Shown: positions 2,328 to 15,666 of the stretch, piece by piece
Numbering within the stretch: position 1 is the stretch's first letter
Layout: each line of letters begins with the position of its first letter
Origin: Candidatus Levyibacteriota bacterium
Lineage (GTDB): Bacteria; Patescibacteriota; Microgenomatia; Levybacterales; UBA12049
DNA length: 36,011 nt
Direction: 5' to 3'
Assembly: GCA_016204535.1 (NCBI GenBank)
Contig: JACQKL010000007.1
Location: forward strand, 1-36,011
Position numbers and translations under genes: made by a program
Notes under the pieces: model-generated
Database searches by the model: none
Told to the model about the DNA's origin: nothing
The model's input: the letters and a program-made list of their open reading frames with translations, nothing else

Positions 2328-4337
2328 ATGAAGTTTAAATTAGTCTCGAATTTTAAGCCTACTGGTGACCAACCGCAGGCAATCCAAAAATTGACTCAAA
2401 ACCTTGAGAAAAATGTAAGGAATCAAGTGCTTTTGGGCGTAACAGGTAGTGGAAAGACCTTTACCATGGCTAATGTGATCGAAAAAATTCAAAAGCCTAC
2501 TCTTATAATTTCTCATAATAAAACTCTCGCAGCTCAACTTTATCAGGAATTTAGGGATTTTTTCCCCCACAATGCAGTTTCTTACTTTGTTTCTTATTAT
2601 GATTATTACCAACCCGAAGCTTATATCCCTCAAAGCGATACTTATATAGAAAAAGAGGCGGAAATAAATGATGAGATTGATAAATTAAGACTTTCTGCAA
2701 CAACCAGTCTTCTAACTCGTAAAGACGTAATTGTTGTTGCTTCTGTGTCCTGTATTTACAATTTAGGCTCTCCTGTGGAATATGGAAAATTTGTGCTTGA
2801 AATAAAGCCTGGTGTAAAAACTGATTTAAAGTCAATTATCTTAAGACTTACTGACTTACAATACGATCGAAATGAATACGCGTTTGAAAGAGGTAGTTTT
2901 AGAGTGAGAGGTGATGCTATTGATTTATTTCCGGCATACAAAGACATTGGCATCAGAATCGAGCTTAAAAATGACAAAATAAAGGAAATTTCGGAATTTG
3001 ACTCTCTTACAGGGACCACAATTGAAGTTTTAGAAAGTATTGTGATTTATCCTGCCAAACATTATATGACCGATCCTTTATCATATAGTAACGTCTTTCC
3101 AAGGATTCTGAAAGATTTAAAAATTCAAGTTGCAAAATTAAAACAAGAAAACAAACTCTTGGAGGCACAAAGACTTGAGCAGCGGACAAATTTTGATCTG
3201 GAAATGATCAAAGAAATTGGCTACGTAAATGGAATAGAGAATTATTCAAGATATTTTGACGGAAGAAACCCCGGAGAACCTCCCTATACGCTTTTGGATT
3301 ATTTTAACTATCAATCAAAAGACTTTTTATGCATTATAGATGAATCACATATGACTATTCCCCAGTTAAGAGGCATGTATAATGGGGATCATTCAAGGAA
3401 AGAAACCTTAATTGAATATGGTTTTCGCCTCCCATCGGCTTTGGATAATCGACCGCTTAAATTTCCAGAATTAATGCAACGACTCAATCAAATAATTTAT
3501 GTGAGTGCTACACCTGATGATTATGAACTATCCTTAGCAAAAGACAGCTTAAAATCTAATGACGCTATTATTGAACAATTAATCCGTCCAACAAATCTGG
3601 TTGATCCCAAAATAACTGTAAAACGATCAGAGGGGCAAATTATTGACTTAATTGAGGAAATTAACAAAAGAGTGTCTGTTGGGCAAAGAGTTCTAGTAAC
3701 AACTTTGACAAAAAGAATGGCTGAAGAGCTGTCTTCTTATTTGGAAGAAAGAAATGTTAAAGTTTCCTATCTTCATTCTGACATCCAAACCTTGGAAAGA
3801 CAGGATGTATTAGATCAACTTAGGGAGGGTACATATGATGTAATTGTTGGCATAAATCTTCTTCGCGAGGGACTGGATTTGCCTGAAGTTTCTCTAGTTG
3901 CAATACTAGATGCTGATAAAGAAGGATTTTTACGCAGCAAAACCTCGCTTGTCCAAACTATGGGAAGGGCTGCTCGTCACATTGATTCGCAAGTTATTAT
4001 GTATGCGGATATTTTTACTAAATCAATGAGGAATGCAATTGATGAAGTTGAAAGAAGAAGAAAAATTCAGATTAAATACAATAAGAAACACAATATAACC
4101 CCAAAAGGAATCGAGAAAAAAATCAAAGCAAAATTAGTTGAAGAAGATCTTTCCAAACCAGCAAATGAAGATTTAAAATATTTATTAACTCTTTCCCAAA
4201 AAGAAGTAATCTTACCCGATGAAAAAGAAAATCTAATTAAAAAACTTAGAAAAGAAATGAAGGAAGCAGCGCAAAACTTAAATTTCGAAAAAGCAGCTAT
4301 GATCCGCGACCAAATTAAACTCCTTAGAATCCGCTGA
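2328..4337 (+). CDS. uvrB: Excinuclease ABC subunit B
   Basis: PTGDQPQAI, GVTGSGKT, YYDYYQPEAY, DESH, C-terminal UVR domain. Confidence 0.98.
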   Translation: MKFKLVSNFKPTGDQPQAIQKLTQNLEKNVRNQVLLGVTGSGKTFTMANVIEKIQKPTLIISHNKTLAAQLYQEFRDFFPHNAVSYFVSYYDYYQPEAYIPQSDTYIEKEAEINDEIDKLRLSATTSLLTRKDVIVVASVSCIYNLGSPVEYGKFVLEIKPGVKTDLKSIILRLTDLQYDRNEYAFERGSFRVRGDAIDLFPAYKDIGIRIELKNDKIKEISEFDSLTGTTIEVLESIVIYPAKHYMTDPLSYSNVFPRILKDLKIQVAKLKQENKLLEAQRLEQRTNFDLEMIKEIGYVNGIENYSRYFDGRNPGEPPYTLLDYFNYQSKDFLCIIDESHMTIPQLRGMYNGDHSRKETLIEYGFRLPSALDNRPLKFPELMQRLNQIIYVSATPDDYELSLAKDSLKSNDAIIEQLIRPTNLVDPKITVKRSEGQIIDLIEEINKRVSVGQRVLVTTLTKRMAEELSSYLEERNVKVSYLHSDIQTLERQDVLDQLREGTYDVIVGINLLREGLDLPEVSLVAILDADKEGFLRSKTSLVQTMGRAARHIDSQVIMYADIFTKSMRNAIDEVERRRKIQIKYNKKHNITPKGIEKKIKAKLVEEDLSKPANEDLKYLLTLSQKEVILPDEKENLIKKLRKEMKEAAQNLNFEKAAMIRDQIKLLRIR

Positions 4338-4704
4338 TGTTTTTGGTAAGTTCTATATTCTGAACGTTCTGACCGTTTAATAATATTGATACGGCATCTA
4401 TCCGAAGGCTTTCGGGAAGATTGGGATGAATTAATTTATAAAATTGTGCTGTTTTAATTATTTCTCTTAGTTTCCAATAGGTGATTGATTCAAGCGGAGT
4501 ACCGAAATAGTTTGAAGTTCTCGTCTTTACCTCAATGAAAACTAATATTTCTTTTCCTTTACCTTCAGATGGGTCGATTGCAACAATATCAATTTCTCCA
4601 TATCCTTTTCTGAAATTCCGCTCGATAATTTTAAAACCTAATTTTTTGAGGTATTCACAGGCTTTATCTTCTCCTAATTTTGCAATAGGGTTGACAACTT
4701 TCAC
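4324..4704 (-). CDS. yraN: YraN family (UPF0102) nuclease-fold protein
   Basis: GEDKACEYL, ERNFR, GEIDIVA, LVFIEVKTR, RIDAV. Confidence 0.9.
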   Translation of the reverse strand: MKVVNPIAKLGEDKACEYLKKLGFKIIERNFRKGYGEIDIVAIDPSEGKGKEILVFIEVKTRTSNYFGTPLESITYWKLREIIKTAQFYKLIHPNLPESLRIDAVSILLNGQNVQNIELTKNISGF

Positions 4705-5052: not shown

Positions 5053-6714
5053 TCAATTCTCTTCGCATGCTTTAATAAATCCTAAGAATATTGGGTGAGG
5101 TTTTAGAGGGCGGCTTTTGTATTCGGGATGGCCTTGGGTACCAAGATAAAAAGGATGGTTTTCTTTTGGCAATTCTATTATTTCTGCCAAATTTTCAACG
5201 ATTGATCTTGCGCTAATAATTAAGCCGTTTTTTTCAAAATCTTTTGAATACTTATCATGAAATTCATATCTATGCCTATGCCGTTCGCTAGTTAATCCCT
5301 TACTTTTGTTTGTAAACCCCCCATATTTATCATAAAGCTCAAAAGCTCTGGTATTTGGTTTTACTTTTGCCTCCCAAGCACCAAGTCGCATGGTTCCTCC
5401 ATATGCCCTTCTTTTCACTATACTTTCTTGTTTTGGCATCAGATGAATTACCGGACGAAAGGTCTTTGGACTATTTTCTGTAGTGTCTGCATCCTTCCAA
5501 CCTAAAATATCTCGAGCGAATGCAATGACAGCAAGTTGCATGCCATAGCAAAGCCCAAGGTACGGTATATTGTTTATTCTCGCATAAGAGGCTGTTGTTA
5601 TCATTCCTTCCGCACCTCTTTCTCCCCATCCAATCGGCACAATAATCCCATTTGGCTTGCCGATAATATTTTCAAGATGTTTCTCCTCAGCCTGCACTTT
5701 TTCAGCGTCTATCCATTTTGTTTTTACCTCAACTCCAATCTTCCAGCTCGCATGATCAATTGCATCCAAGAGTGCTGCGTAAGAATCTCTTAGTTGGTAA
5801 TCTCCGGTTCCAAAATATTTTCCAATAATTGCAATTTCTATTTTTTTATCCTTTTTGCTTTTTATTTTTTCATTTAGTTTTTCCCATTCTAAAAGCTTTG
5901 GTAATTTTATTGGCAATTTAAGTTTTTTGAGAATCTTTTTTTCCAGATTTTGTTTGTGAAGGAGAAGCGGTATTTCGTAAATATAGGGAAGATCTGGATT
6001 AGAAATAATGTCCGAAGGATGCATGTTGCAGAAAAGTGCAAATCTGTCTTTTCTTCGTTGGTCTAAATATTTCTCAGATCTAGCAATTACAAAATCTGGT
6101 TGGATCCCCATAGAATTAAGTGTTCGAACTGAAAGTTGGGCAGGTTTTGTTTTGGGTTCTCCGATATGACGGGGAGTGGGAACATAGGTAACATGAATAT
6201 GAATAACGTCTTCAGGGTTTTTTAAAGTCATTATTCTTGCCGCTTCATAGTAAAATATATTTTGGTATTCCCCTGCCGTGCCTCCCAGCTCAATTAAAAC
6301 AATATCTGCATTTTTTTTACGAGCAAGGTAATTTATTCTTCTTGCTATCTCATCAGTTATGTAGGGAATAGCCTCAACATCTTCACCGTTATATTCAAAT
6401 CTTCTTTCTTTATCGATAACTGTTTTATAAATTCTTCCCATCGTGATGAAATTATCTTTTCCCATATCCTCGTCTAGAAACTTTTCATAGCTACCAATGT
6501 CCATATCTGCTTCCGTCCCATCTTCACATAAAAAGGGGTCCCCGTGTTCAATTGGATTTATTGTACCTGCGTCTAAATTTAAATAATTTTCAAATTTTAT
6601 TATTGTTACTTTGTAGCCGGATGCTTTAAGAAGAAATGCGATAGAGGCCGCTGTAGTACCCTTTCCAATTCCGGATATTACACCTCCTGAAACAAAAATA
6701 TACTTAGTGTGCAC
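5053..6714 (-). CDS. pyrG: CTP synthase
   Basis: KYIFVSGGVISGIGKG, GLCYGMQ nucleophile, ERHRHRYE, QGHPE. Confidence 0.97.
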   Translation of the reverse strand: MHTKYIFVSGGVISGIGKGTTAASIAFLLKASGYKVTIIKFENYLNLDAGTINPIEHGDPFLCEDGTEADMDIGSYEKFLDEDMGKDNFITMGRIYKTVIDKERRFEYNGEDVEAIPYITDEIARRINYLARKKNADIVLIELGGTAGEYQNIFYYEAARIMTLKNPEDVIHIHVTYVPTPRHIGEPKTKPAQLSVRTLNSMGIQPDFVIARSEKYLDQRRKDRFALFCNMHPSDIISNPDLPYIYEIPLLLHKQNLEKKILKKLKLPIKLPKLLEWEKLNEKIKSKKDKKIEIAIIGKYFGTGDYQLRDSYAALLDAIDHASWKIGVEVKTKWIDAEKVQAEEKHLENIIGKPNGIIVPIGWGERGAEGMITTASYARINNIPYLGLCYGMQLAVIAFARDILGWKDADTTENSPKTFRPVIHLMPKQESIVKRRAYGGTMRLGAWEAKVKPNTRAFELYDKYGGFTNKSKGLTSERHRHRYEFHDKYSKDFEKNGLIISARSIVENLAEIIELPKENHPFYLGTQGHPEYKSRPLKPHPIFLGFIKACEEN

Positions 6715-6767
6715 GACTCATATTATCAAGAATTCAGATCTTTCGTCAACAACTAGATTTATCAATG

Positions 6768-6868
6768 GAGCTCCTTTACGAAAAAGTTCGGACCGCTTTC
6801 GTATTATCATTGTAGTCGCTCACTTCGTTCGCTCCTATTATTTATATTGCTCGGCCTTCGGCCTCGCT
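6768..6868 (+). repeat. Left end arm; inverted repeat of 11266-11366
   Basis: 101 bp, 3 mismatches by manual alignment. Confidence 0.95.
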
Positions 6869-6924
6869 TTAGTATTTTTTGCACGGACCGAAAGTGCGCG
6901 ATTTTTTTCGGAACTCTTGGGAAT

Positions 6925-6933
6925 ATTATATCA
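6925..6933 (-). promoter_or_regulatory. Extended -10 promoter pointing outward across the left end
   Basis: TGaTATAAT on minus strand. Confidence 0.45.
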
Positions 6934-6954
6934 GGTTTTTCCTAATTCCGTTTC

Positions 6955-7390
6955 AACCCACCCACCCGTTTATGGTGGCGGCGACCCCGCCTTTGGGCGC
7001 TAGACCCGCCTTGGGGCGGGTTTGCCCACAGTTTTCGTTTTTTAAATTCCGCTACAGTATCTTCCCCACCCGCCGCGGGCGGGTTTTCTTTTAGCGTTAC
7101 TTAGTTTCGTTGCGCCGTCGGCGGGATGTGTCCGCTATTCGCCCCCGCCTTAATTATTTTACCCCTTCCCGTTCATGTTGCCGCAACGAAGTTCGGTTGG
7201 CGAACCCGCCGTCTTCTAATACAAAAATATTCTTCGGCGTGTTCGCTTGGTCGGGCTTCCTATCCGAATGAAATTCTTAAGTCGAGTTTTCCCTGACGGG
7301 CGCCCTCCTTTTAGCAACGACTCCATCGGGAGCGGGGGCGGCGGACCGCCAGAAAGAATCGGCCAGATTGGTGGAAATTGGCCGATTCCC
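6955..7390 (+). other. GC-rich highly structured non-coding region (ncRNA or single-strand origin/promoter candidate)
   Basis: Stems 7002-7023, 7068-7084, 7106-7114/7182-7190, 7200-7211/7235-7246, 7130-7148/7332-7346, 7356-7365/7379-7388; no credible ORF. Confidence 0.6.
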
Positions 7391-7406
7391 GTGCTAGACT
7401 AAATTT

Positions 7407-8099
7407 ATGCCAGACGATCCGATTCAAGACAACCAAGACCAGACGACGAGCCAACCGGAACCGCAACCGGAAGAATCAAAACCAGTTGAAGACCTGTCCT
7501 CCGAAGTCTCGACGAAGGAGGAAAATCCGAAGCCCGAAGATATTCCAACTCCTGAACCGCCGAAAGAAGGGGCTCCAGCCGACCTGTCCTCCGAAACCTC
7601 GGTGAAGGAGGAAAATCCTGCGCCATCCGAACCAGAACCGGAGAAAAGGCCCGATGAACCGAAGCCGGAAGAACCAAAGCAAAGCGAAGAAAAGAAATCC
7701 GAAGATTCCAAGCCTTCCTTGCCCGCCGAAGCTTCAACGAAGGTGGGAGAGCCTGAAATAAAGATTGTCGAGAAAGAAGTCATCAAAGAAATTCCGGTTG
7801 AGGTTATAAAAGAAGTGAAAGTTGTCGACGAAACAGAACTTGGCAAGCAACTCGATGAGAAATTCAAAGCAAAGCTTCTGGAAAATAAAAAGAAAGCCAA
7901 CGAGGCGAGATCTCAGAAGAAGAAAGATCATCTGGATAGAATTGTTGAGCTGGCAAAGAAAAAAGAGATTAATAATCAGGATGTCAGAGATTTATTGCAG
8001 GTTTCACAAAGCACGGCGACAAATTACTTAACAGAATTGACTAAATCTGGTAGACTAAAGTCGGAAAAGAAGGCTAAGGCAAAAGTATATAAAAGTTAA
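7407..8099 (+). CDS. Pro/Glu-rich low-complexity protein with C-terminal winged HTH
   Basis: C-terminal INNQDVRDLLQVSQSTATNYLTELTKSGRL wHTH; extended -10 TGcTAGACT at 7392-7400, 6 nt before ATG. Confidence 0.8.
   Translation: MPDDPIQDNQDQTTSQPEPQPEESKPVEDLSSEVSTKEENPKPEDIPTPEPPKEGAPADLSSETSVKEENPAPSEPEPEKRPDEPKPEEPKQSEEKKSEDSKPSLPAEASTKVGEPEIKIVEKEVIKEIPVEVIKEVKVVDETELGKQLDEKFKAKLLENKKKANEARSQKKKDHLDRIVELAKKKEINNQDVRDLLQVSQSTATNYLTELTKSGRLKSEKKAKAKVYKS
7491..7747 (+). repeat. Three in-frame palindromic REP-like units (7491-7528, 7581-7618, 7718-7747)
   Basis: TCCTCC-GAA-GTC-TC-GAC-GAA-GGAGGA, TCCTCC-GAA-ACC-TC-GGT-GAA-GGAGGA, CCCGCC-GAA-GCT-TC-AAC-GAA-GGTGGG. Confidence 0.8.
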
Positions 8100-8107
8100 A
8101 GTTATGA

Positions 8108-8140
8108 CGTTGTACTATGCTACAACGCTACAATAGTACT
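8108..8140 (+). promoter_or_regulatory. Candidate operator/promoter of TrpR-like gene
   Basis: GTACTAT(8112-8118)/ATAGTAC(8133-8139) and CGTTGTA/TACAACG inverted repeats overlapping -10 TACAAT (8129-8134). Confidence 0.5.
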
Positions 8141-8428
8141 ATGGCAACACTTAATTTAGAGAAAGATAAAAAGTTATTGGTAGCAACCCTACGAAAATTA
8201 AAATCCTCAAAAGATTTATCAGCTTTTCTTGATGATCTTTTAACCGAAGAGGAAATTCTTGATTTAGCTCAAAGAATTAAAATCGCAAAATTAATTCTTG
8301 ATGGAAAAACCTATGATGAGATTGCAGTAAAAGTTGAAACTTCCACATCCACAGTTTCAAAGATTGGTCAGATAATTAAATACGGCAAAGGCGGGTTACA
8401 GAAAGTTTTGGAAAAAATAAAATTATGA
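8141..8428 (+). CDS. TrpR-like YerC/YecD family repressor
   Basis: FLDDLLTEEEILDLAQRIKIAKLILDGKTYDEIA..STSTVSKI..YGKGG. Confidence 0.88.
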   Translation: MATLNLEKDKKLLVATLRKLKSSKDLSAFLDDLLTEEEILDLAQRIKIAKLILDGKTYDEIAVKVETSTSTVSKIGQIIKYGKGGLQKVLEKIKL

Positions 8429-8739
8429 ATCTATATTTCATTATTCTAGTTGTTTTTATCTCTGTGATGTTAATTATTTATTTTTGCCTAAGTAAGCATA
8501 ATCTTGAAAAATTTTTCCCAAAACCAGAACTTGATATGGCTAGCATAGCAGGAGTAATATCTCAAATTATCAAAACTCATGCACAGATAATTATTGGATC
8601 ATTTGTAATCTTGGTTTTAACGGCTTTATTAATAGAAAATAAAATATCTTCAGAGGCTGCGATGCCGATTATCTCACTGATTACCGGTTACATTCTCGGT
8701 TCAGAGATAAATACATATAAAAATAAAGATAAGGGTTAA
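8425..8739 (+). CDS. Small membrane protein, hypothetical
   Basis: ATGA coupling with upstream gene; about three hydrophobic segments. Confidence 0.7.
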   Translation: MNLYFIILVVFISVMLIIYFCLSKHNLEKFFPKPELDMASIAGVISQIIKTHAQIIIGSFVILVLTALLIENKISSEAAMPIISLITGYILGSEINTYKNKDKG

Positions 8740-8862
8740 TCAATATGGGAAAATGCTAGGCAAGGGCGGGAGACGCTGATTTGATGTTTTTAACAAGCAT
8801 TTTCTACTTGATAATTTTTAAACGAAACATTATGATTAGCTTGGGATGGAAAGGCATATCTC

Positions 8863-10053
8863 ATGTTGAAGAAAATAATTAAATTTATTTCAAGTTTACT
8901 CATCTGGTATTTCATTGGTTCCTTGTTCTATTTAACAGCAATAGGAGTCAAGGTTTTAAATAGTTCTCTTCCTACATTTTTATTATTCATAACAATTTTT
9001 CTTGTTGTGTGGAGACTATTACGAAAGACCTTGCAAAAAATAAATATTGGCAACGATATTCGCATCAGAAGATTTTATAGCCGTTCTCGAACACTTCTTA
9101 CTGTAGGAGCAATACTTCTATTGATTTATCAACTTATAGTTTCCCCATTTATACTAAAACCGCAGAAGGTAACCGTTTCCTATGGTAGTTTAAAAAGCGG
9201 TACTTTATTGACTTTTGTATACCATAATGGATTCTCACGTATAAACAGAGCTGATATTATTATCTACTTTTCACCTAAAAACTCAGGAGACACAATTACT
9301 AGGGTTATTGGCATTCCGGGAGATAAGATTATATTAAAAGGTGGATTTGTATATCTAAACGGTAAATTTTTAAAGGAACCATATACGATTCAACCGAGAA
9401 AAACATGGACAGATTATTCAGGGGTTATAATAGGCAAAAATTGCGAGGAGATAATTGTACCCCAACGCAAATACTTTGTATTAAGTGACGATAGGGAATA
9501 TGGATTTAATTCTTTGGTTGAAGGATTCATTTCGGAAGACAAAATAACAGATTATTTGCCAGCTAAGCTCCTAAAAAATTTTATATTTAACCCTAACGAT
9601 TTGTTTAACAATAATAGAGATACATCCAAAGACATGGAGCTAGTAAAGGAGCCCATATTGGATACTCAAGATTATGTAAGGCTTATAAATATAAAACGGC
9701 AGGAAAATGGAGCTGAACCATTAAGGTACGACAAGAAGCTAGAGCGATCGGCAGATTTAAGGTTGCAGAATATGCTAAAGCTCGATGATCTTTCTTATGA
9801 AGCAACGAAGAGCGGATACGTAGCGTGGAAAGCTCTCGCTGATGTCGGATATAACGATAAAGCCTATTTATATTTAGAGCGAACTCTTGAGGCAAATTTT
9901 AACTCCAATTCATTATCCAATTTTTATTGGGAATTCGGAGATAGGGAAAACTTTCTTAGTAAAGAGTTGAAATATATAGGGGTAGTTTCTAAAATTGTTG
10001 ATATAGATAGTTGCCCAAAACAGGTTATTGTTCAGCATCTTCTCGGTCAGTAG
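8863..10053 (+). CDS. Membrane protein with degenerate signal peptidase I (S26) domain and C-terminal CAP domain
   Basis: RVIGIPGDKI..VYLNGKFLKEPY, VPQRKYFVLSDDR (S26-like); INIKRQENGAEPLRYDKKLERSA..YIGV (CAP-like); promoter TTGATA-17-TATGAT at 8808-8836. Confidence 0.8.
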   Translation: MLKKIIKFISSLLIWYFIGSLFYLTAIGVKVLNSSLPTFLLFITIFLVVWRLLRKTLQKINIGNDIRIRRFYSRSRTLLTVGAILLLIYQLIVSPFILKPQKVTVSYGSLKSGTLLTFVYHNGFSRINRADIIIYFSPKNSGDTITRVIGIPGDKIILKGGFVYLNGKFLKEPYTIQPRKTWTDYSGVIIGKNCEEIIVPQRKYFVLSDDREYGFNSLVEGFISEDKITDYLPAKLLKNFIFNPNDLFNNNRDTSKDMELVKEPILDTQDYVRLINIKRQENGAEPLRYDKKLERSADLRLQNMLKLDDLSYEATKSGYVAWKALADVGYNDKAYLYLERTLEANFNSNSLSNFYWEFGDRENFLSKELKYIGVVSKIVDIDSCPKQVIVQHLLGQ

Positions 10054-10151
10054 CTTATTCAAAGAGAGCATGTTCGATTACTTTGCTCTTTACCTCAAGA
10101 ATATATTCTCAAAGAGCCATTAGGAGATGCAGCTCTTAACTAGGGGTGGGG

Positions 10152-10180
10152 TTGACAAGAATTAGTTTCCAAAGTATGCT
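10152..10180 (+). promoter_or_regulatory. Sigma70-type promoter
   Basis: TTGACA-17bp-TATGCT. Confidence 0.6.
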
Positions 10181-10218
10181 ACTGTTGACAAAAGAATTTT
10201 ATGGAGGAAGGACGAAGC

Positions 10219-10368
10219 ATGAATTGCAGACATCAATATCTTGTTGAGAAAATTAAGGACATGCCAAATGTTGACTTTCATCATGCATGTGATGGAGATC
10301 TTTCAAAAAGGTGGAAAACTTCTATGTGTAAATTGTGTGGACATATAAAAACCGAACCAATTTTTTAG
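10219..10368 (+). CDS. 49-aa putative zinc-binding protein (not in ORF track)
   Basis: MNCRHQY...SMCKLCGHIKTEPIF*, CxH...CxxC; upstream promoter and GGAGG at 10203-10207. Confidence 0.55.
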   Translation: MNCRHQYLVEKIKDMPNVDFHHACDGDLSKRWKTSMCKLCGHIKTEPIF

Positions 10369-10465
10369 ATATTATCATCTTTTTTTTTGAAGAAATAATA
10401 CTATGAATATTTTTGTGGAGAGGAAAAATTGTGTTTATCCTGAAGACTTGAAGTAAAATACGCTT

Positions 10466-11089
10466 ATGGAAACAACCGCCTCTGCTTTACTCGATCAAAT
10501 TAACCTAAGTTTAAAGCCTCTTGGGAATTTAAATAAACCATTCTATTTTGACCCCAATTTTCTTGGAGCAATGCTCGCGTCAGTTGCCGCTTTGGGTATA
10601 GCTATATTTAGCGAACAACTTAGAGGCCTATGGAGAAAAACAAATCTTACAGTGCAGAGAATACTTCCAAATGAACAAGGAAATGGGAATTCTATCCACT
10701 ACAGACTTTTAATAGTAAATAAAGGTAGCTATCCAGCAAAAGATGTAGAGGTGTATGTAGATAAGATCTACGAAAATAATAGAGAAAGGAGGAATTTCCT
10801 GCCAGTTCCTTTAAGATGGGCTCACGCCCGAGCCTATATGACTGCCGGAGTCTATAGAAATATACATCCTAATCAATCTGTCTTACTTGATTTTTGTGAA
10901 CTTATTAAGAGCAATAATCTGCTTAAATTAAGTCTAGCTGCGGGAGATGAAGTTCCAGATTATTGCATACTGCATGGTGGAGACACAAAGGTAGCAATAA
11001 AGATATATCAGGAAGATGGAAAGACAATTACGACAAAATTCAAAATCTCGTGGCAAACTAATTTTAATATACAGATTTCCGTGATTTGA
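10466..11089 (+). CDS. Hypothetical protein with N-terminal TM helix and beta-rich domain
   Basis: 207-aa ORF; -10 TAAAAT 6 nt before ATG. Confidence 0.7.
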   Translation: METTASALLDQINLSLKPLGNLNKPFYFDPNFLGAMLASVAALGIAIFSEQLRGLWRKTNLTVQRILPNEQGNGNSIHYRLLIVNKGSYPAKDVEVYVDKIYENNRERRNFLPVPLRWAHARAYMTAGVYRNIHPNQSVLLDFCELIKSNNLLKLSLAAGDEVPDYCILHGGDTKVAIKIYQEDGKTITTKFKISWQTNFNIQISVI

Positions 11090-11138
11090 TATAGAAAAAC
11101 TCAGTTGAAATCTTCCATAAAGCTGCTACACTAAAAAC

Positions 11139-11327
11139 GTGATCAAACTTTCCTTTCGGCTTTTTAATGGCCGTTTTGAACAGATCCGAATGGATTTGAG
11201 CACACCAGAACGGCCATTTGAATTTTTGGAAAAATTTTTGCGTTTTTTCTCGCCGACAGTTTTTGAGCGAGGCTCAAGGCCGAGCAATATAAGTAATAGG
11301 AGCGAACGAAGTGAGCGACTACAATGA
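11139..11327 (+). CDS. Small leaderless ORF upstream of recombinase, running into the inverted attP copy
   Basis: TTGAAA(11105-11110)..TGcTACACT(11124-11132), GTG 6 nt later; 62 aa. Confidence 0.45.
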   Translation: MIKLSFRLFNGRFEQIRMDLSTPERPFEFLEKFLRFFSPTVFERGSRPSNISNRSERSERLQ

Positions 11328-11465
11328 TAATACGAAAGCGGTCCGAACTTTTTCGTAAAGGAGCTCAGAATGGGACTTTCCCAAAGCCAAGGTTTTGAGG
11401 CTGGGGGAAGAAAACCCCGAATAAAGCTCCGCAAAGCCTAAATTGTAGGCGGGGAAAAGTTGCCG
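11266..11465 (-). repeat. Internal inverted copy of the reconstituted attP junction
   Basis: Reverse complement reads [12908-13010] joined through the shared GAGC to [6768-6868]: ...GTCCCATTCT-GAGC-TCCTTTACG... Confidence 0.95.
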
Positions 11466-11510
11466 GTTAAAAGAGAAAAAAAACGCAAAAATTGGGGAAA
11501 TAAGACTGCC

Positions 11511-13072
11511 ATGAAATATATAGCGTACTGTAGGAAATCAACAGACGAAAAGGACAGGCAAATTCTCTCGATAGAAGCTCAAATAGCAGAGCTAACTGAA
11601 TTTGCCAAACGAGAGGGCTTGGAAATCTCGGAATTTATCACGGAAGCCAAGACAGCCAAGATTCCCGGCCGTGAACAATTTGACAGGCTTTTAATGCTGC
11701 TTGAGAAAGGAAAAGCTCAAGGAATTATCTCCTGGCACCCGGATCGTCTGGCAAGAAATTCCATAGATGGCGGAAAGATCATTTATTTACTTGATACAGG
11801 CAAACTTTTTGACCTGAAATTCCCCTCCCATTGGTTTGAAAATACCCCGCAGGGGAAATTTATGCTTAGCATTGCCTTTAGTCAATCCAAATACTACATA
11901 GACAATTTAAGCGAGAATGTTAAAAGAGGTTTAAGAAGAAATTAAGAAATGGCGTATTACCTTCTAAGGCTCCATGGGGATACAAAAATAATGAGGAGTT
12001 TGGGACTATTGAAATTGACGAAGTAAAATCAAAAATCCTTAAGAAAGCCTTTGAATTGTTTGCTAACGGAAATAAATCATTTACCGACATCTCAATCTAT
12101 CTTTTTAAAAATGGTTTTACTGACAAGTATGGAAGACAACTAAAGATAGACAGGCTTAAAAATGCTTTAAGCAACAAATTCTATATCGGGATCATCTATT
12201 ACGGGGGAGAATATTATGAGGGAAAGCATAAATTATTTATTTCGAAAACATTATTTGATCAGGTACAAAAACAGTTCAAGCTTAGGGAAAGAGCCAGGCC
12301 CAATAACAAACACCATTTATCCTTCTTGGGGCTCATGAAATGCGGAGAATGTAAGGCTTCAATTACGGGAGAGATGAAAACTAAATTTTACAAAGGAACG
12401 CAAAGAAAAGCTGAATATATTTACTATGGTTGTACTAAAAAATTGAAAAACTGTTTGCAGAAACCAATTCCCGAACCGGAATTGGAATTGCAGATAACAA
12501 AAGCCATTAGCGATGTGGCTTTGCCCGAAGAATGGGCTGATGATTGGCATAAATGGCTCAAAGGAGACGAATTACAGGAAAAGCAGTTAAAAGAAGAAAA
12601 TTTACAAAACCTAGATGAGGAAATTAAAGCACTGGACCAAAAATTAAATTTTCTTCTAGACAGCTACTTGGACAACGTGATTGACGCCGATATTTACAAG
12701 AAAAAGAAGAATGAATTATTCGAAGAAAAGTTAAGAAAACAGGAAGAAATTACCAAATTTCAGGCAAACGGTTCCGGTTGGCTCGGACCTTTCAGGGAAT
12801 TCATAGATAGCGCCATGCGGTGCGAAAAAATCGCGCGTGCAAAAAATACTAATGAAGAATTGGCATTCTTCGCAAAAACTGTCGGCTCGGACTTCTTTTT
12901 AACTGATCGGCAACTTTTCCCCGCCTACAATTTAGGCTTTGCGGAGCTTTATTCGGGGTTTTCTTCCCCCAGCCTCAAAACCTTGGCTTTGGGAAAGTCC
13001 CATTCTGAGCGGGATACGAGAATCGAACTCGCTTCTCTACCTTGGGAAGGTAGCATACTACCAGTGTACTAA
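11511..13072 (+). pseudogene. Large serine recombinase (catalytic, recombinase, zinc-ribbon and coiled-coil domains) split by a 1-nt frameshift near 11935-11945
   Basis: MKYIAYCRKS (catalytic Ser), DRLARN, LSENVKRG; second frame continues KLRNGVLPSKAPWGYKN..., CGEC...YYGC...C. Confidence 0.88.
12908..13010 (+). repeat. Right end arm; perfect inverted repeat of 11363-11465
   Basis: 103/103 identity by manual alignment; lies inside recombinase coding sequence. Confidence 0.95.
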
Positions 13073-13078
13073 TCCCGC
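13008..13078 (-). tRNA. tRNA-Gly(CCC)
   Basis: GCGGGAT acceptor stem, CTACC-TTCCCAA-GGTAG anticodon arm, GTTCGATT T-loop, U discriminator. Confidence 0.95.
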
Positions 13079-13100
13079 AATAATATTATTTTATCATAAC

Positions 13101-13685
13101 TTACCGCGGGAGTTTGAGGACGTTTCCTGAGAAAATAAGGTCGGGATTTGAGAGATTATTTACTTTTGCAAGCTCAACCCATTTATAACCATCACCATAT
13201 GCTCTAACCGAGATATCCCATAAATTATCACCACTTTTGACCGTATATGAACTTCCTGTAATTGAACTCTTTTCAGTTACTTGTGTCGGTACTGTAGGAG
13301 TCGGTTCCGATTTTTGCGTAATGGTTGGAATTGTTAATTTATTTCCGGAATGGATTATATCGGGATTTTGCAACTTATTTGCTCTTGCTAATTCTGTCCA
13401 TTTATATCCATCTTTATAAACGTTCTCAGAAATAGTCCACAGATCGTCACCAGGTTTTACTGTATAAGTTGATGAAGTCTTTGATTCATTAGATTCTTGT
13501 TTTTCAAGATTTGATTCTTCTTTGGTAGAACTCGTTTGTGTGTTTTTAGCATTTCTTACAAAAGAAATAAATAAAATCCCTGCAACCAAGACAACTATCG
13601 CTCCTAAAATAAGACTTGTATAAGATTCTGTAAGTTTAAAATAGCTAAAAATTCCGCTTCTTGCTTTTCTATTTTGTTTTGCCAT
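13101..13685 (-). CDS. Membrane-anchored protein with two LysM domains
   Basis: TM helix; YTVKPGDDLWTISE..IHSGNKLTIP and YTVKSGDNLWDIS..IFSGNVLKLP. Confidence 0.92.
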   Translation of the reverse strand: MAKQNRKARSGIFSYFKLTESYTSLILGAIVVLVAGILFISFVRNAKNTQTSSTKEESNLEKQESNESKTSSTYTVKPGDDLWTISENVYKDGYKWTELARANKLQNPDIIHSGNKLTIPTITQKSEPTPTVPTQVTEKSSITGSSYTVKSGDNLWDISVRAYGDGYKWVELAKVNNLSNPDLIFSGNVLKLPR

Positions 13686-13749
13686 ACATTTTAAGATATA
13701 AATTTGTGGGCAGAATTTTCTATGGGGCAGAAGTAAATCGACTTACTAG

Positions 13750-13823
13750 CGGGGTGAACGGGACTCGAACCCGCGGCCTCTTCCGTGACAGGGAAGCGCT
13801 CTAGCCAACTGAGCTACCACCCC
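13750..13823 (-). tRNA. tRNA-Asp(GTC)
   Basis: GGGGTGG TAGCTCAGTTGGCTAGAGC, CT-GTC-AC anticodon loop, GGTTCGAGTCC. Confidence 0.95.
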
Positions 13824-13896
13824 TCCCGTTTTTTAAGTTACTGATAGCCTAGCACATAATTGAAGTCTAGTCAATACTTTGATATTATCACATAAA

Positions 13897-15666
13897 ATGA
13901 GCAATCAGCAAATAGCAAAACTATTTAGAAATGTAGTAGCAGCATATTCCATTAAAGATGAGAAAAAATTTCATTTTCAAATTTTGGCTTACCAAACTGC
14001 TGCGGAGACAATATTAAATACGACAGAGGAAATAAAAGATTTATACAAAGAGGGGAAATTAATTTCTCTTCCAGGCATTGGAGAGACAATTAAAGGTAGA
14101 ATCGAAGAGTTGTTTAAAAAAGACCATGTAGCTCATTTTGACTGGGTTTTAAAAGGAATACCAAAATCCGTTTTTGTCCTGATTGAGATACCAACTATTG
14201 GGCCCAAAAAAGCTTACAAATTAGTTAAAGAATTTTCCCTAGAAAATCCAGATGAGGTAATAGAAAAGTTAATTTTCAAAGCTAAAAACGGAGAAATAGC
14301 TAAAATCCCGTCTTTCGGAGAAAAGTCTGAACAAGACATTTTAAGAGCACTTTTGGAATACAAAACTGGTAAAAACAAGACTGCAAGAATGGTTCTTCCT
14401 TATGCGGCTGAAATAGCGGAAAGAATAATTGCCTATCTTAAAAAGAGTTCTGTCATAGCTGAAGCCGTGGTACTTGGTAGTCTCAGACGTATGATGCCAA
14501 CAGTTGGAGACATCGATGTTGCAGTGGCTACTAATGAGCCTGAAAAGGCAATCCAATATTTTGTTTCTTACCCTTATAAAGATAGAATTGTCGAAAAAGG
14601 CCCCCGGACAGCTTCTATACTTACTTCCGGGGGTAAGCAAATAGATTTAATGGTTCAACCGACCGAAGGTTTTGGTGCTCTATTACAACATTTTACTGGA
14701 AGTAAAGCGCATAACGTACACCTAAGAGAATTTGCTCTCAAAAAAGGCCTTTCTTTATCAGAAAAAGGCATTAAAAACCTAAAGGGAAAAGGCCAAAAAC
14801 TCAAAACTTATGATAGTGAAGAAAAATTTTACAGTGCGCTTGGATTAAGCTGGATTCCTCCAGAAATAAGAGAAGATACTGGCGAGATTGAGCTCGCAGA
14901 GCAACAAAACCTTCCTCAATTAGTTGAGCTTTCAGATATAAAAGGCGATTTGCATCTTCATTCCGACTTTCCGATTGAGCCAAGCCACGATCTTGGACAT
15001 AATTCTTTAAATGAAATGGCTGAATACGCTAAAAAATTAAACTATGAGTATGTTGGTTTTTCAGAACATAACCCTAGTATTTCAAAACATTCAAAAAATG
15101 ATATTTATTTTTTAATTGCAAGAAGAAATAATCTAATTGAACAAATTATTTCGAGTAATAAAGGTATACGAATACTTAAGCTACTCGAAATAGACATCTT
15201 AACCGATGGATCCCTTGCTATCAATAATAATTCTTTAGATTTACTCGATGGCGCGATTGTTTCAATTCATAGTTCTTTTAATACAGACAAAAACGAAATG
15301 ACTAAAAGGGTAATCGAAGGACTCTCCCATCCAAAAGCTAAAATACTCGCTCACCCAACTGGTAGACTTCTTAATAAACGACCAGGTTACAATCTTGATT
15401 TCGAAAAATTATTTGATTTTTGCAAAAAAAATAACAAAGCACTTGAAATTAACAGTTGGCCTCTGAGACTTGATTTGCCTGATTCATTAATCAGACAAGC
15501 TGTAAAATATAAGATCAAGATGGTAATTAATACCGACAGTCATTCATTATCGGAAATGAACTTAATGAAATATGGGGTAGCAATGGCTAGAAGAGGCTGG
15601 GCGGAAAAATGTGATATAATAAATACGTTGCCATACGAAAAACTCTTGGATTGGTTTAAAAAGTAA
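13897..15666 (+). CDS. polX: DNA polymerase X family / PHP domain protein
   Basis: HhH LPGIGE, GSLRR..GDIDV, HFTGSKAHN, GDLHLHS, AHPTGRL, NTDSH; promoter TTGAAG-17-TATTAT supports ATG at 13897. Confidence 0.93.
   Translation: MSNQQIAKLFRNVVAAYSIKDEKKFHFQILAYQTAAETILNTTEEIKDLYKEGKLISLPGIGETIKGRIEELFKKDHVAHFDWVLKGIPKSVFVLIEIPTIGPKKAYKLVKEFSLENPDEVIEKLIFKAKNGEIAKIPSFGEKSEQDILRALLEYKTGKNKTARMVLPYAAEIAERIIAYLKKSSVIAEAVVLGSLRRMMPTVGDIDVAVATNEPEKAIQYFVSYPYKDRIVEKGPRTASILTSGGKQIDLMVQPTEGFGALLQHFTGSKAHNVHLREFALKKGLSLSEKGIKNLKGKGQKLKTYDSEEKFYSALGLSWIPPEIREDTGEIELAEQQNLPQLVELSDIKGDLHLHSDFPIEPSHDLGHNSLNEMAEYAKKLNYEYVGFSEHNPSISKHSKNDIYFLIARRNNLIEQIISSNKGIRILKLLEIDILTDGSLAINNNSLDLLDGAIVSIHSSFNTDKNEMTKRVIEGLSHPKAKILAHPTGRLLNKRPGYNLDFEKLFDFCKKNNKALEINSWPLRLDLPDSLIRQAVKYKIKMVINTDSHSLSEMNLMKYGVAMARRGWAEKCDIINTLPYEKLLDWFKK

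Follow-up and report, generated by a model that had tools for sequence, protein, structure and literature searches.

Islands of ultra-small (CPR) bacteria encoding a large serine recombinase carry a putative second, inverted attP in front of a recombinase gene in which the predicted crossover lies

INTRODUCTION

Why should an integrative element that encodes its own large serine recombinase (LSR) keep, directly in front of the recombinase gene, an inverted copy of the junction between its own two ends? The question is raised by a 200-bp segment of the window, by which we mean the whole stretch of 36,011 nucleotides analysed here, taken from a contig of a Candidatus Levyibacteriota bacterium. 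Serine integrases, with phiC31, Bxb1 and A118/LI as phage-type examples, are the standard tools for inserting large cargo into genomes; the model that accounts for their working in one direction has a single attP, a single attB and a separate directionality factor. Two inverted attP sites, an in-frame crossover and an exchange of the protein's tail, as proposed below for the island in the window and its relatives, do not fit this standard one-attP model. A first-pass annotation of this DNA knew of no serine-recombinase system built in this way, and our search of the full-text literature, with subscription journals and supplements outside its scope, likewise returned no LSR element with two inverted attP sites and no such islands in CPR bacteria.

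RESULTS

Anatomy of the island

The repeat search over positions 5500-14500 returned two inverted matches, which reproduced those reported in the first-pass annotation: 11363-11465 with 12908-13010 over 103 nt (100% complementary), and 11266-11366 with 6768-6868 over 101 nt (98/101, 97%, three mismatches). The two internal arms share four nucleotides, GCTC at 11363-11366, the reverse complement of the GAGC found at both outer ends of the island (6768-6771 and 13007-13010). Read as its reverse complement, 11266-11465 is the right end fused to the left end via this common core, and the earlier reading that the copy spells the excised-circle junction holds. In the whole assembly of 605,339 bases in 47 contigs the arm sequences were found at these three places only, so the inverted matches are far above chance.

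The left end of the integrated element, the L arm (6768-6868, plus strand), is the element side of attL. It begins with the GAGC core and bears a TTCGGAC/TTCGAAC-type motif; once fused to R, its first ~45 nt would encode the native C-terminal tail of the recombinase. It is followed by a post-L module (6869-7100, plus strand), which is G+C-rich, conserved and non-coding, always adjoins the outer L arm in relatives and contains a terminator-like hairpin at 7068-7084, then a T run. The variable cargo (7101-11100, plus strand) comprises ORFs at 7407-8099, 8117-8428, 8425-8739, 8863-10053 and 10466-11089, of which 8117-8428 encodes a Trp-repressor-like HTH protein and 8863-10053 a signal peptidase S26 with a CAP domain; the remaining three had no family assignment. 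None of the five matched a replication, phage or transfer family in Pfam or PHROGs, which bears out the earlier statement that phage, conjugation and Rep genes are absent. The cargo as an inovirus was considered and rejected because no Zot or Rep was found. No directionality factor was recognised among the five window ORFs and ten cargo ORFs of relatives; such factors share no common family.

To the right of the cargo lies the pre-L' module (11105-11265, plus strand), with a promoter-like site at 11105-11132, a pseudoknotted RNA-like motif at about 11139-11217 and short inverted pieces at 11233-11248 and 11252-11265. The internal copy consists of L' (11266-11366, minus strand), the L arm inverted with three mismatches, and R' (11363-11465, minus strand), the R arm inverted and identical at 103/103 positions, whose minus strand carries the ~34 recombinase codons that immediately precede the core. 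The GCTC shared by L' and R' would be the crossover region of the candidate second site, attP2. The recombinase gene (11513-13072, plus strand) encodes Resolvase, Recombinase and zinc-ribbon domains, with a 1-nt frameshift near 11936-11941, and the 3' end of its ORF forms the R arm (12908-13010, plus strand), the right end of the island, which closes with GAGC. The attB-bearing gene, tRNA-Gly(CCC) (13007-13078, minus strand; found by both ARAGORN and Rfam), overlaps the core by 4 nt with its 3' end and is transcribed toward the recombinase gene, antisense to it. An independent small gene on the minus strand of the copy was also considered and was rejected, as it had no conserved start.

Some shorter repeats were noted in the same region. 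An exact 16-mer inverted repeat (11233-11248 / 11478-11493) brackets the L'R' copy. A 14-mer directly left of L' (11252-11265) is the reverse complement of 12873-12886, the AKTVGS codons 21 nt before R, and co-varies with each relative's own gene although it is too short for gene conversion. By eye, the post-L module of many elements starts with TTATTTTTTGCGCGCGCGATTTT, the reverse complement of the element's own ..IARAKN.. codons ~60 nt before R (window 6873-6912; L049, L050, L057, L067, L072, L081, L086, L088 and others). At 7405-8100 the window has a G+C-rich (0.50) ORF with 38-nt and 20-nt direct repeats; contig depth there reached 827-934 in two runs, so this stretch is a repeat common to other DNA of the samples.

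The island is a polymorphic insertion at tRNA-Gly

The left neighbour of the island is the CTP synthase gene pyrG (5053-6714, minus strand). In four genomes of the same genus (L040-L043) CTP synthase and tRNA-Gly are only 30-90 nt apart, which represents the empty site. The corresponding joint 6767->13007 was present in contigs of 4/4 runs from two studies, with 4 ambiguous nt and a short side of only 26 letters. The depths of these joint contigs were 54.9, 67.6, 6.7 and 20.8 vs 23.8, 24, about 4.5 and 11.1 for element-only contigs, and in run X2 the element-specific contigs had a depth of 23.8 vs 62-74 for the flanks. From the empty sites, the joint contigs and the depths it follows that 6768-13010 is a 6.2-kb insertion, polymorphic within its population; the element ends given in the first-pass annotation are thus real and abut a tRNA-Gly 3' end. 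By its domains, its core and its site-specific insertion (GAGC at the ends and in the copy, empty sites), the island is an LSR integrative element. Two separate transposons with terminal inverted repeats, a cargo unit L..L' and a recombinase unit R'..R, were rejected because the R->L frame is conserved and the empty sites miss the whole island only.

Logan contigs of the four runs matched 11224-11323 (pre-L'/L'), 11337-11465 (the L'R' joint) and 11436-12889 (R'/gene) without differences. Unitigs are unable to order repeats of 100 nt, and recurrence of the layout in other assemblies is the stronger argument against misassembly. The data for the window population are contigs, in which a circle junction would read like the internal copy and an inversion would alter no junction; circles and flips are thus invisible in them. 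No circular contig was found among the 80 metagenome loci of the survey described below.

The predicted crossover lies within the recombinase reading frame

The window enzyme matched PF00239 (Resolvase) on 11460-11945 with an E-value of 8.8e-22, as well as PF07508 (Recombinase) and PF13408 (zinc ribbon). It has the LSR domains at a size of about 520 aa, and S10 of the YCRKS motif, the serine nucleophile, was invariant in 29 aligned relatives. In the AF2 model of L195, the one relative with a contiguous native ORF and intact arms, helices 331-434 follow the zinc ribbon with pLDDT mostly >85, in keeping with the long coiled-coil insert of LSRs, and the model is confident to residue about 473; the last 40 residues have pLDDT of 26-50, only 2/29 alignment rows carry the native tail, and the docking place of the tail is unreadable from the model. 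The window recombinase stands in two frames, with one base missing near 11936-11941. In run X4 a minor contig (depth 5.9 of 28.3) contains an extra C after 11936 that restores the family sequence GLRQKLRNG, so intact and broken recombinase alleles coexist.

In 115 of 123 loci no stop codon interrupts the frame between its start and the outer end of R. In the integrated form the ORF runs through R and the core into the tRNA gene and ends 8-30 codons later, in the window with the tail RDTRIELASLPWEGSILPVY and a stop codon. When R is read into L, as in a circle or on the minus strand of the internal copy, the ORF extends by 10-17 codons into a conserved tail that stops ~30-50 nt beyond the core; this native tail is ELLYEKVRTAFVLSL plus stop in the window and follows the pattern ..[YF]xx[IVA]RTxF.. 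in the family. The R->L tail and stop were conserved in 9/9 loci and also in most of 102 internal copies; a narrow tail pattern scored 24 of these 102, though most show ..RTxF.., and indels between the arms put ~20 rows out of frame. Even distant family members share the codons (..NRQL) at which the repeat has its inner boundary. The predicted crossover is therefore inside the recombinase ORF, ~15 codons before the native stop, a point absent from the first-pass annotation, and integration at this site (attP1) is predicted to swap the last ~15 codons for tRNA-derived ones. Judged by its reading frame, the internal copy is an inverted duplicate of the last ~52 codons and ~50 nt of 3' flank placed ahead of the gene, in other words a putative spare native 3' end.

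A structured leader adjoins the copy

The conserved module left of L' combines the promoter-like site with the structured motif. Over 19 loci (the window, L045, L048, L050, L052, L055, L059, L061, L066, L071, L080, L081, L088, L097, L102, L111, L115, L118 and L120) its two crossing helices were 98.2% and 97.1% paired, with changes on both sides in 6/9 and 9/13 pairs; the covariation score was reached by 0/500 shuffles, and slid controls gave 33-44% pairing. The pseudoknotted motif had no Rfam family, and neither had the copy and its surroundings, for which the best match, RefA9, scored 28 bits vs 49 needed. This motif is possibly a leader that controls the recombinase. In Microgenomates-type members the leader lies left of the copy, so the copy would fall in the 5' UTR. 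In six Parcubacteria-type loci (L097, L102, L111, L115, L118 and L120) promoter and leader lie between R' and the start codon, which would place the copy outside the recombinase mRNA there. A promoter/terminator scan returned no convincing promoter in 11240-11513 of the window, and the arms folded as RNA had no unusual stability (z -0.9 to 0.0). A general role of the copy as RNA appears unlikely.

The copy is a recurring trait that follows its own element

The C-terminal frame had close homologues in ten of 61 related genomes. All of the first eight loci with long flanks (8/8) contained both inverted-repeat pairs, the first of ~105 nt around the recombinase gene with arms 1416-1993 nt apart, and the second from the abutting position to the far end of the element. 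Three of four further close homologues had the first pair, and the fourth was cut by a contig end. At greater distance, two relatives at 35-36% identity carried the repeat, and it was present in 0/9 LSRs at 26-32% identity and in 0/2 others at 26-27%.

An alignment of the eight enzymes was then used as a query and returned more than 560 relatives in each of two collections, from which we took 80 loci of species-representative genomes and 80 of metagenomes. We called a locus evaluable if it had at least 450 nt upstream and at least 120 nt downstream. The inverted repeat surrounded the gene in 47/51 and 42/44 evaluable loci of the two collections, with arms of 96.6% and 98.0% median identity and a length of 110 and 104 nt, respectively; one attP per element is thus not the rule in this family, in which 89 of the 95 loci have two inverted copies. 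The six exceptions were three loci with weak remnants, the flipped L096 (see below), L160 and L172. The far pair L/L' was found in 30/45 and 18/20 loci with at least 3 kb upstream, and the cargo between the arms measured 557-9345 nt. Taken together, well over a hundred related islands of ultra-small (CPR) bacteria share this layout.

Within an element, the median identity of arm and copy was 98.9% for R (n=102) and 100% for L (n=60); between elements, identity was 58.9% for R and 61.7% for L (1500 random pairs each). The first-pass annotation had proposed that homologues be searched for a copy co-varying with their own ends, and such copies exist. This match within the element, together with the recurrence, disposes of misassembly. 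Mismatches between arms were evenly spread (3-5% per 10-nt bin over the first 100 nt), and the core-proximal 25 nt were not spared; the distribution fits homogenisation by gene conversion and gives no sign of constraint on the protein-binding part alone. Decayed arms (72%) occur beside intact genes in L030/L047. A more distant tRNA-targeting LSR, L126, whose ORF also runs into the tRNA gene, has no copy. Cargo of the relatives is mostly of defence or surface type, such as type III restriction-modification (L028), a C5 methylase, and a reverse transcriptase with a PD-(D/E)XK nuclease (L025).

The family targets tRNA 3' ends through an asymmetric site

Among the 114 loci with at least 90 nt beyond R, 83 had a tRNA 3' end on the opposite strand within 25 nt of the outer R end, and across the family the targets amounted to 30 tRNA species. 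The first 25 nt of L are conserved (TTTACGAAAAAATTCGAAC and variants) and hold TCGAAC, as does the T-arm of the tRNA across attR. In 31 of 45 elements the distance from the last shared base to this motif is 4-5 nt greater on L than on the tRNA side; of the other 14 offsets, 13 were mis-scored on an earlier CGAA and one was +7. The R side has no TCGAAC-type motif, so the attachment site is strongly asymmetric. In phage LSRs, attP and attB half-sites differ by a ~5 bp outward shift of one recognition motif. We read the L arm as a P-type half-site that mimics the tRNA T-arm (TCGAAC) 4-5 bp further from the crossover.

The copy appears to have served as a crossover site in relatives

In the common form the gene reads into the tRNA 3' end, and a tRNA(+) facing the 5' side of the gene was found in only 6/160 loci. 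In L195 a tRNA-Leu(+) overlaps R' by 5 nt and is followed by the leader, an intact 513-aa ORF with the native tail, a contiguous R.L and the cargo, with the start of L' at the contig end; its arms are 99% identical. This order suggests an island joined via the upstream copy, or a gene segment that flipped, the difference being hidden by L arms of 342 nt. In L096 a tRNA-Trp(+) precedes the gene and R.L. The next 45 nt match the reverse-complemented pre-L' module of its relative L123 at 44 positions, as would result from inversion of only the gene segment onto the copy; the L' partner was not found in this locus and the arms have since decayed. L076 (9796-11582, Glu-ttc/Glu-ctc) and L205 (33-1940, Ser-gct/Ser-tga) have the arrangement tRNA(+)|R'-gene-R|tRNA(-) with two facing isoacceptor genes, and are likely chromosomal inversions between the internal attP2 of an integrated island and a second attB. 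In the last two loci, L099 and L182, the tRNA(+) is present and the contigs end within the gene. At the level of contigs, the 160 loci include L096 with its apparently flipped gene segment and at least one island that seems to be reversed. From the arrangements in L195, L096, L076 and L205 we infer that the copy very probably is a functional second attP that acts as double-stranded DNA.

The orientation of the cargo was judged by homology of the flanking stretches. Post-L modules matched only post-L modules (71 pairs) and pre-L' modules only pre-L' modules (138 pairs), with two short cross matches (209/211). On the evolutionary scale, this fixed orientation points to few crossovers between the 100-nt arms and tells against flipping by RecA as a frequent event.

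DISCUSSION

We propose a circular form in which two identical attP sites flank the recombinase gene in inverted orientation, attP1 inside the 3' end of its ORF and attP2 just upstream of it. Integration could use attP1, as is usual, or attP2, and the gene would then lie antisense to the tRNA in the usual form and sense in the other. Crossover at attP1 would give the form of the window and of most relatives: codons from the tRNA gene take the place of the native tail (..YEK[I/V]RTxF..), tRNA transcription runs antisense into the recombinase gene, and the island keeps an undivided attP2 together with the spare native 3' end. The duplicate may be retained as a toggle between this re-tailed, antisense-transcribed state of stable residence and an intact state fed by the tRNA promoter. 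The routes between the two would be the choice of orientation at integration, or inversion of the gene segment, catalysed at the cores by the recombinase or mediated by RecA through the 100-bp arms, which gene conversion would keep alike. Such a toggle would need no separate directionality factor. The usual form would be stable because its enzyme is re-tailed and opposed by tRNA transcription; forms with an intact gene behind the tRNA promoter may be short-lived or harmful (they could drive events like those in L076/L205), which would explain the 20:1 bias. The copy may have been kept because it offers the only route back to an intact gene within the integrated island. We hold this whole reading, a second, whole, inverted attP plus an on/off toggle of the recombinase, tentatively and at slightly less than even chances.

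Several observations tell against the toggle. The alternative forms amount to only 6/160 loci, two of them cut by contig ends, and cargo orientation is fixed. The tRNA-tailed ORF is intact in 115/123 loci, and islands already integrated appear to have used the copy to recombine with a second tRNA gene; the re-tailed enzyme may therefore be active and not disabled. L126 has the same ORF-into-tRNA layout and no copy, some intact genes have decayed arms (L030/L047), and the window's own gene is frameshifted. To our knowledge, canonical LSRs alone recombine only attP with attB, and we know of no attP x attR or attP x attL reaction by them without a directionality factor. The stricter proposal of a directionality switch by layout alone, in which integration would re-tail and silence the enzyme and inversion or the other orientation would rebuild an intact gene behind a tRNA promoter, seems doubtful to us. 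If it held, the choice between residence and mobility would be reversible with no directionality factor involved, and would be made in this way by a family whose targets have come to include 30 tRNA species across CPR bacteria.

The copy could instead serve mainly as an operator or decoy, i.e. as a binding site through which the recombinase represses itself or is insulated in both the free and the integrated element, its use in crossovers being accidental; resolvase represses its own expression at res. In every case about 50-630 nt separate the copy from the start codon downstream of it, the copy adjoins the conserved promoter and structured leader, and integration at attP1 would split that site, so that only a separate copy could keep the regulation afterwards. 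A binding site, however, needs ~50 bp and not 200 bp of near identity that include 34 codons, and subclades differ in the side of the promoter on which the copy lies. We regard the operator as an improbable main role.

Alternatively, one ancestral inverted duplication of the gene 3' end with attP, now functionless, may have been homogenised by non-crossover conversion. Such a relic would agree with the common inner boundary at ..NRQL, the uniform mismatches, the relative that lacks the copy (L126) and the decayed arms beside intact genes. Its persistence in 89/95 evaluable loci across 35-100% protein identity is hard to reconcile with absence of function, given the cost in inversions between tRNA genes and the ease with which inverted repeats are lost; moreover, a third piece of 14-20 nt, too short for conversion, co-varies with its own gene. 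We consider a mere relic unlikely as well.

The first-pass annotation had suggested that a single strand of the island, or a transcript, splints the two ends together, or that a single-stranded circle folds to give a duplex attP in the manner of CTXphi; L would then pair with L', and R' with R, on a strand either taken up or produced as ssDNA. CPR bacteria are generally assumed to rely on the uptake of DNA, the cargo has no transfer, phage or replication genes, and the arms of ~100 nt each are four times what an LSR half-site needs, with mismatches spread evenly along them, as expected if long pairing matters. The same spread is equally expected from gene conversion, though, and in relatives the copy seems to have crossed over with tRNA genes as an ordinary duplex site. 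The six Parcubacteria-type loci, with the copy predicted outside the recombinase mRNA, and the unremarkable RNA folds of the arms speak against a transcript as the splint; no family of a CTXphi-type ssDNA replicon (rolling-circle Rep, Zot-type) was found in the five window and ten relatives' cargo ORFs. Recombination of a folded stem with a duplex attB by a serine recombinase would also be expected to cap the chromosome with hairpins and not to yield the observed arrangement. The splint thus appears unsupported, and we think it quite improbable.

Amplification as in the yeast 2-micron circle, with the recombinase flipping a replicating free circle between inverted sites to multiply copies per initiation, would suit the geometry of two unique segments and inverted repeats that each hold a recombinase target. 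The 2-micron circle replicates autonomously at a copy number above the chromosome; here no replication gene or origin was recognised, element contigs were less deep than the flanks (run X2), and circular contigs were absent from the 80 metagenome loci, which makes this explanation very improbable. An assembly artefact, a fold-back or chimeric path through the repeat, has in its favour that unitigs cannot order 100-nt repeats and that one metagenome contig (L201, 1-2532), in which the gene lies between 476-nt perfect terminal inverted repeats, is probably such a fold-back path, but it can practically be dismissed, as the layout occurs with element-specific sequences in >100 assemblies from different groups and assemblers and the arms, being 75-100% identical, are not collapsed copies.

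The reading as two inverted attP sites around an LSR gene combines features of several known systems. With phage LSRs the island shares an enzyme of Resolvase, Recombinase and zinc-ribbon domains, an attP x attB reaction with a short common core (4-8 nt in this family) and an element-side half-site motif that is the host-side motif moved 4-5 bp outward. It differs from them in its two inverted attP copies, a predicted crossover inside the integrase ORF, targets at the extreme 3' end of tRNA genes (30 species), dissimilar R and L halves, and cargo in which no directionality factor was recognised. In archaeal tyrosine integrases of the SSV1 type attP also lies inside the int gene and integration also cuts the integrase's own reading frame; there the gene is split in two, whereas the island has a serine enzyme that would exchange only ~15 C-terminal codons and carries a spare. 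As in Hin/Gin and 2-micron FLP, the recombinase gene is within or beside a segment bounded by target-bearing inverted repeats. Those systems use a small serine invertase with enhancer/Fis or a tyrosine recombinase, and their repeats serve inversion only, whereas each island repeat would be a full attachment site for chromosomal integration; with ~520 aa and repeats of ~100 + 100 nt, the island also lacks the small recombinase, C-terminal HTH, ~26-bp sites and enhancer of Hin/Gin. CTXphi likewise has two inverted att-bearing stretches in one element, but it is an ssDNA phage that relies on host XerCD and a ~150-nt forked hairpin, while the island encodes its own serine recombinase and its arms are 1.4-9 kb apart. 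The tycheposons of Prochlorococcus are small cargo islands at tRNA genes in streamlined genomes without classical transfer (10.1101/2020.12.28.424599). According to the accessible part of that report, 910/937 use tyrosine recombinases and a minority an LSR; they resemble the present islands in carrying cargo at tRNA genes without recognisable transfer functions, and differ in being flanked by partial tRNA direct repeats, with neither an internal inverted attP nor serine-specific features mentioned in that part (10.1101/2020.12.28.424599).

With this family it could be tested directly whether the direction of recombination can be set by the identity of the tail or by the layout of the sites. 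It provides more than 100 natural enzyme/attP/attB triplets aimed at 30 tRNA 3' ends, and the half-site rule (a T-arm mimic shifted by 4-5 bp) can be read from sequence, which would be useful to predict and re-aim specificity. The islands show how defence and secretion genes move between CPR genomes in which phage and conjugation functions are not recognisable; a cost inherent in the copy would be inversion between isoacceptor tRNA genes.

A few loci hold what seem to be traces of earlier events. L125 has inverted fragments of the recombinase N-terminus next to its L arm (3449-3483 / 4640-4674, 35 nt, 100%), and in L096 (4300-4347) and in L123 (left of L') an N-terminal piece is fused to ..NIGSN.. 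codons; these fragments may derive from past rearrangements between the gene and the copy. Remnants of recombinase 3' ends lie beside tRNA-Gly(CCC) in L034 (G012:C12, 5320-5705), from another genus. In L024 housekeeping genes stand between the arms because the left 'arm' is an 82% R.L remnant 7 kb away; this junction (5377-5585) is in direct orientation, upstream of the L024 island. The remnants in L034 and L024 are probably decayed or tandem insertions at the same kind of site.
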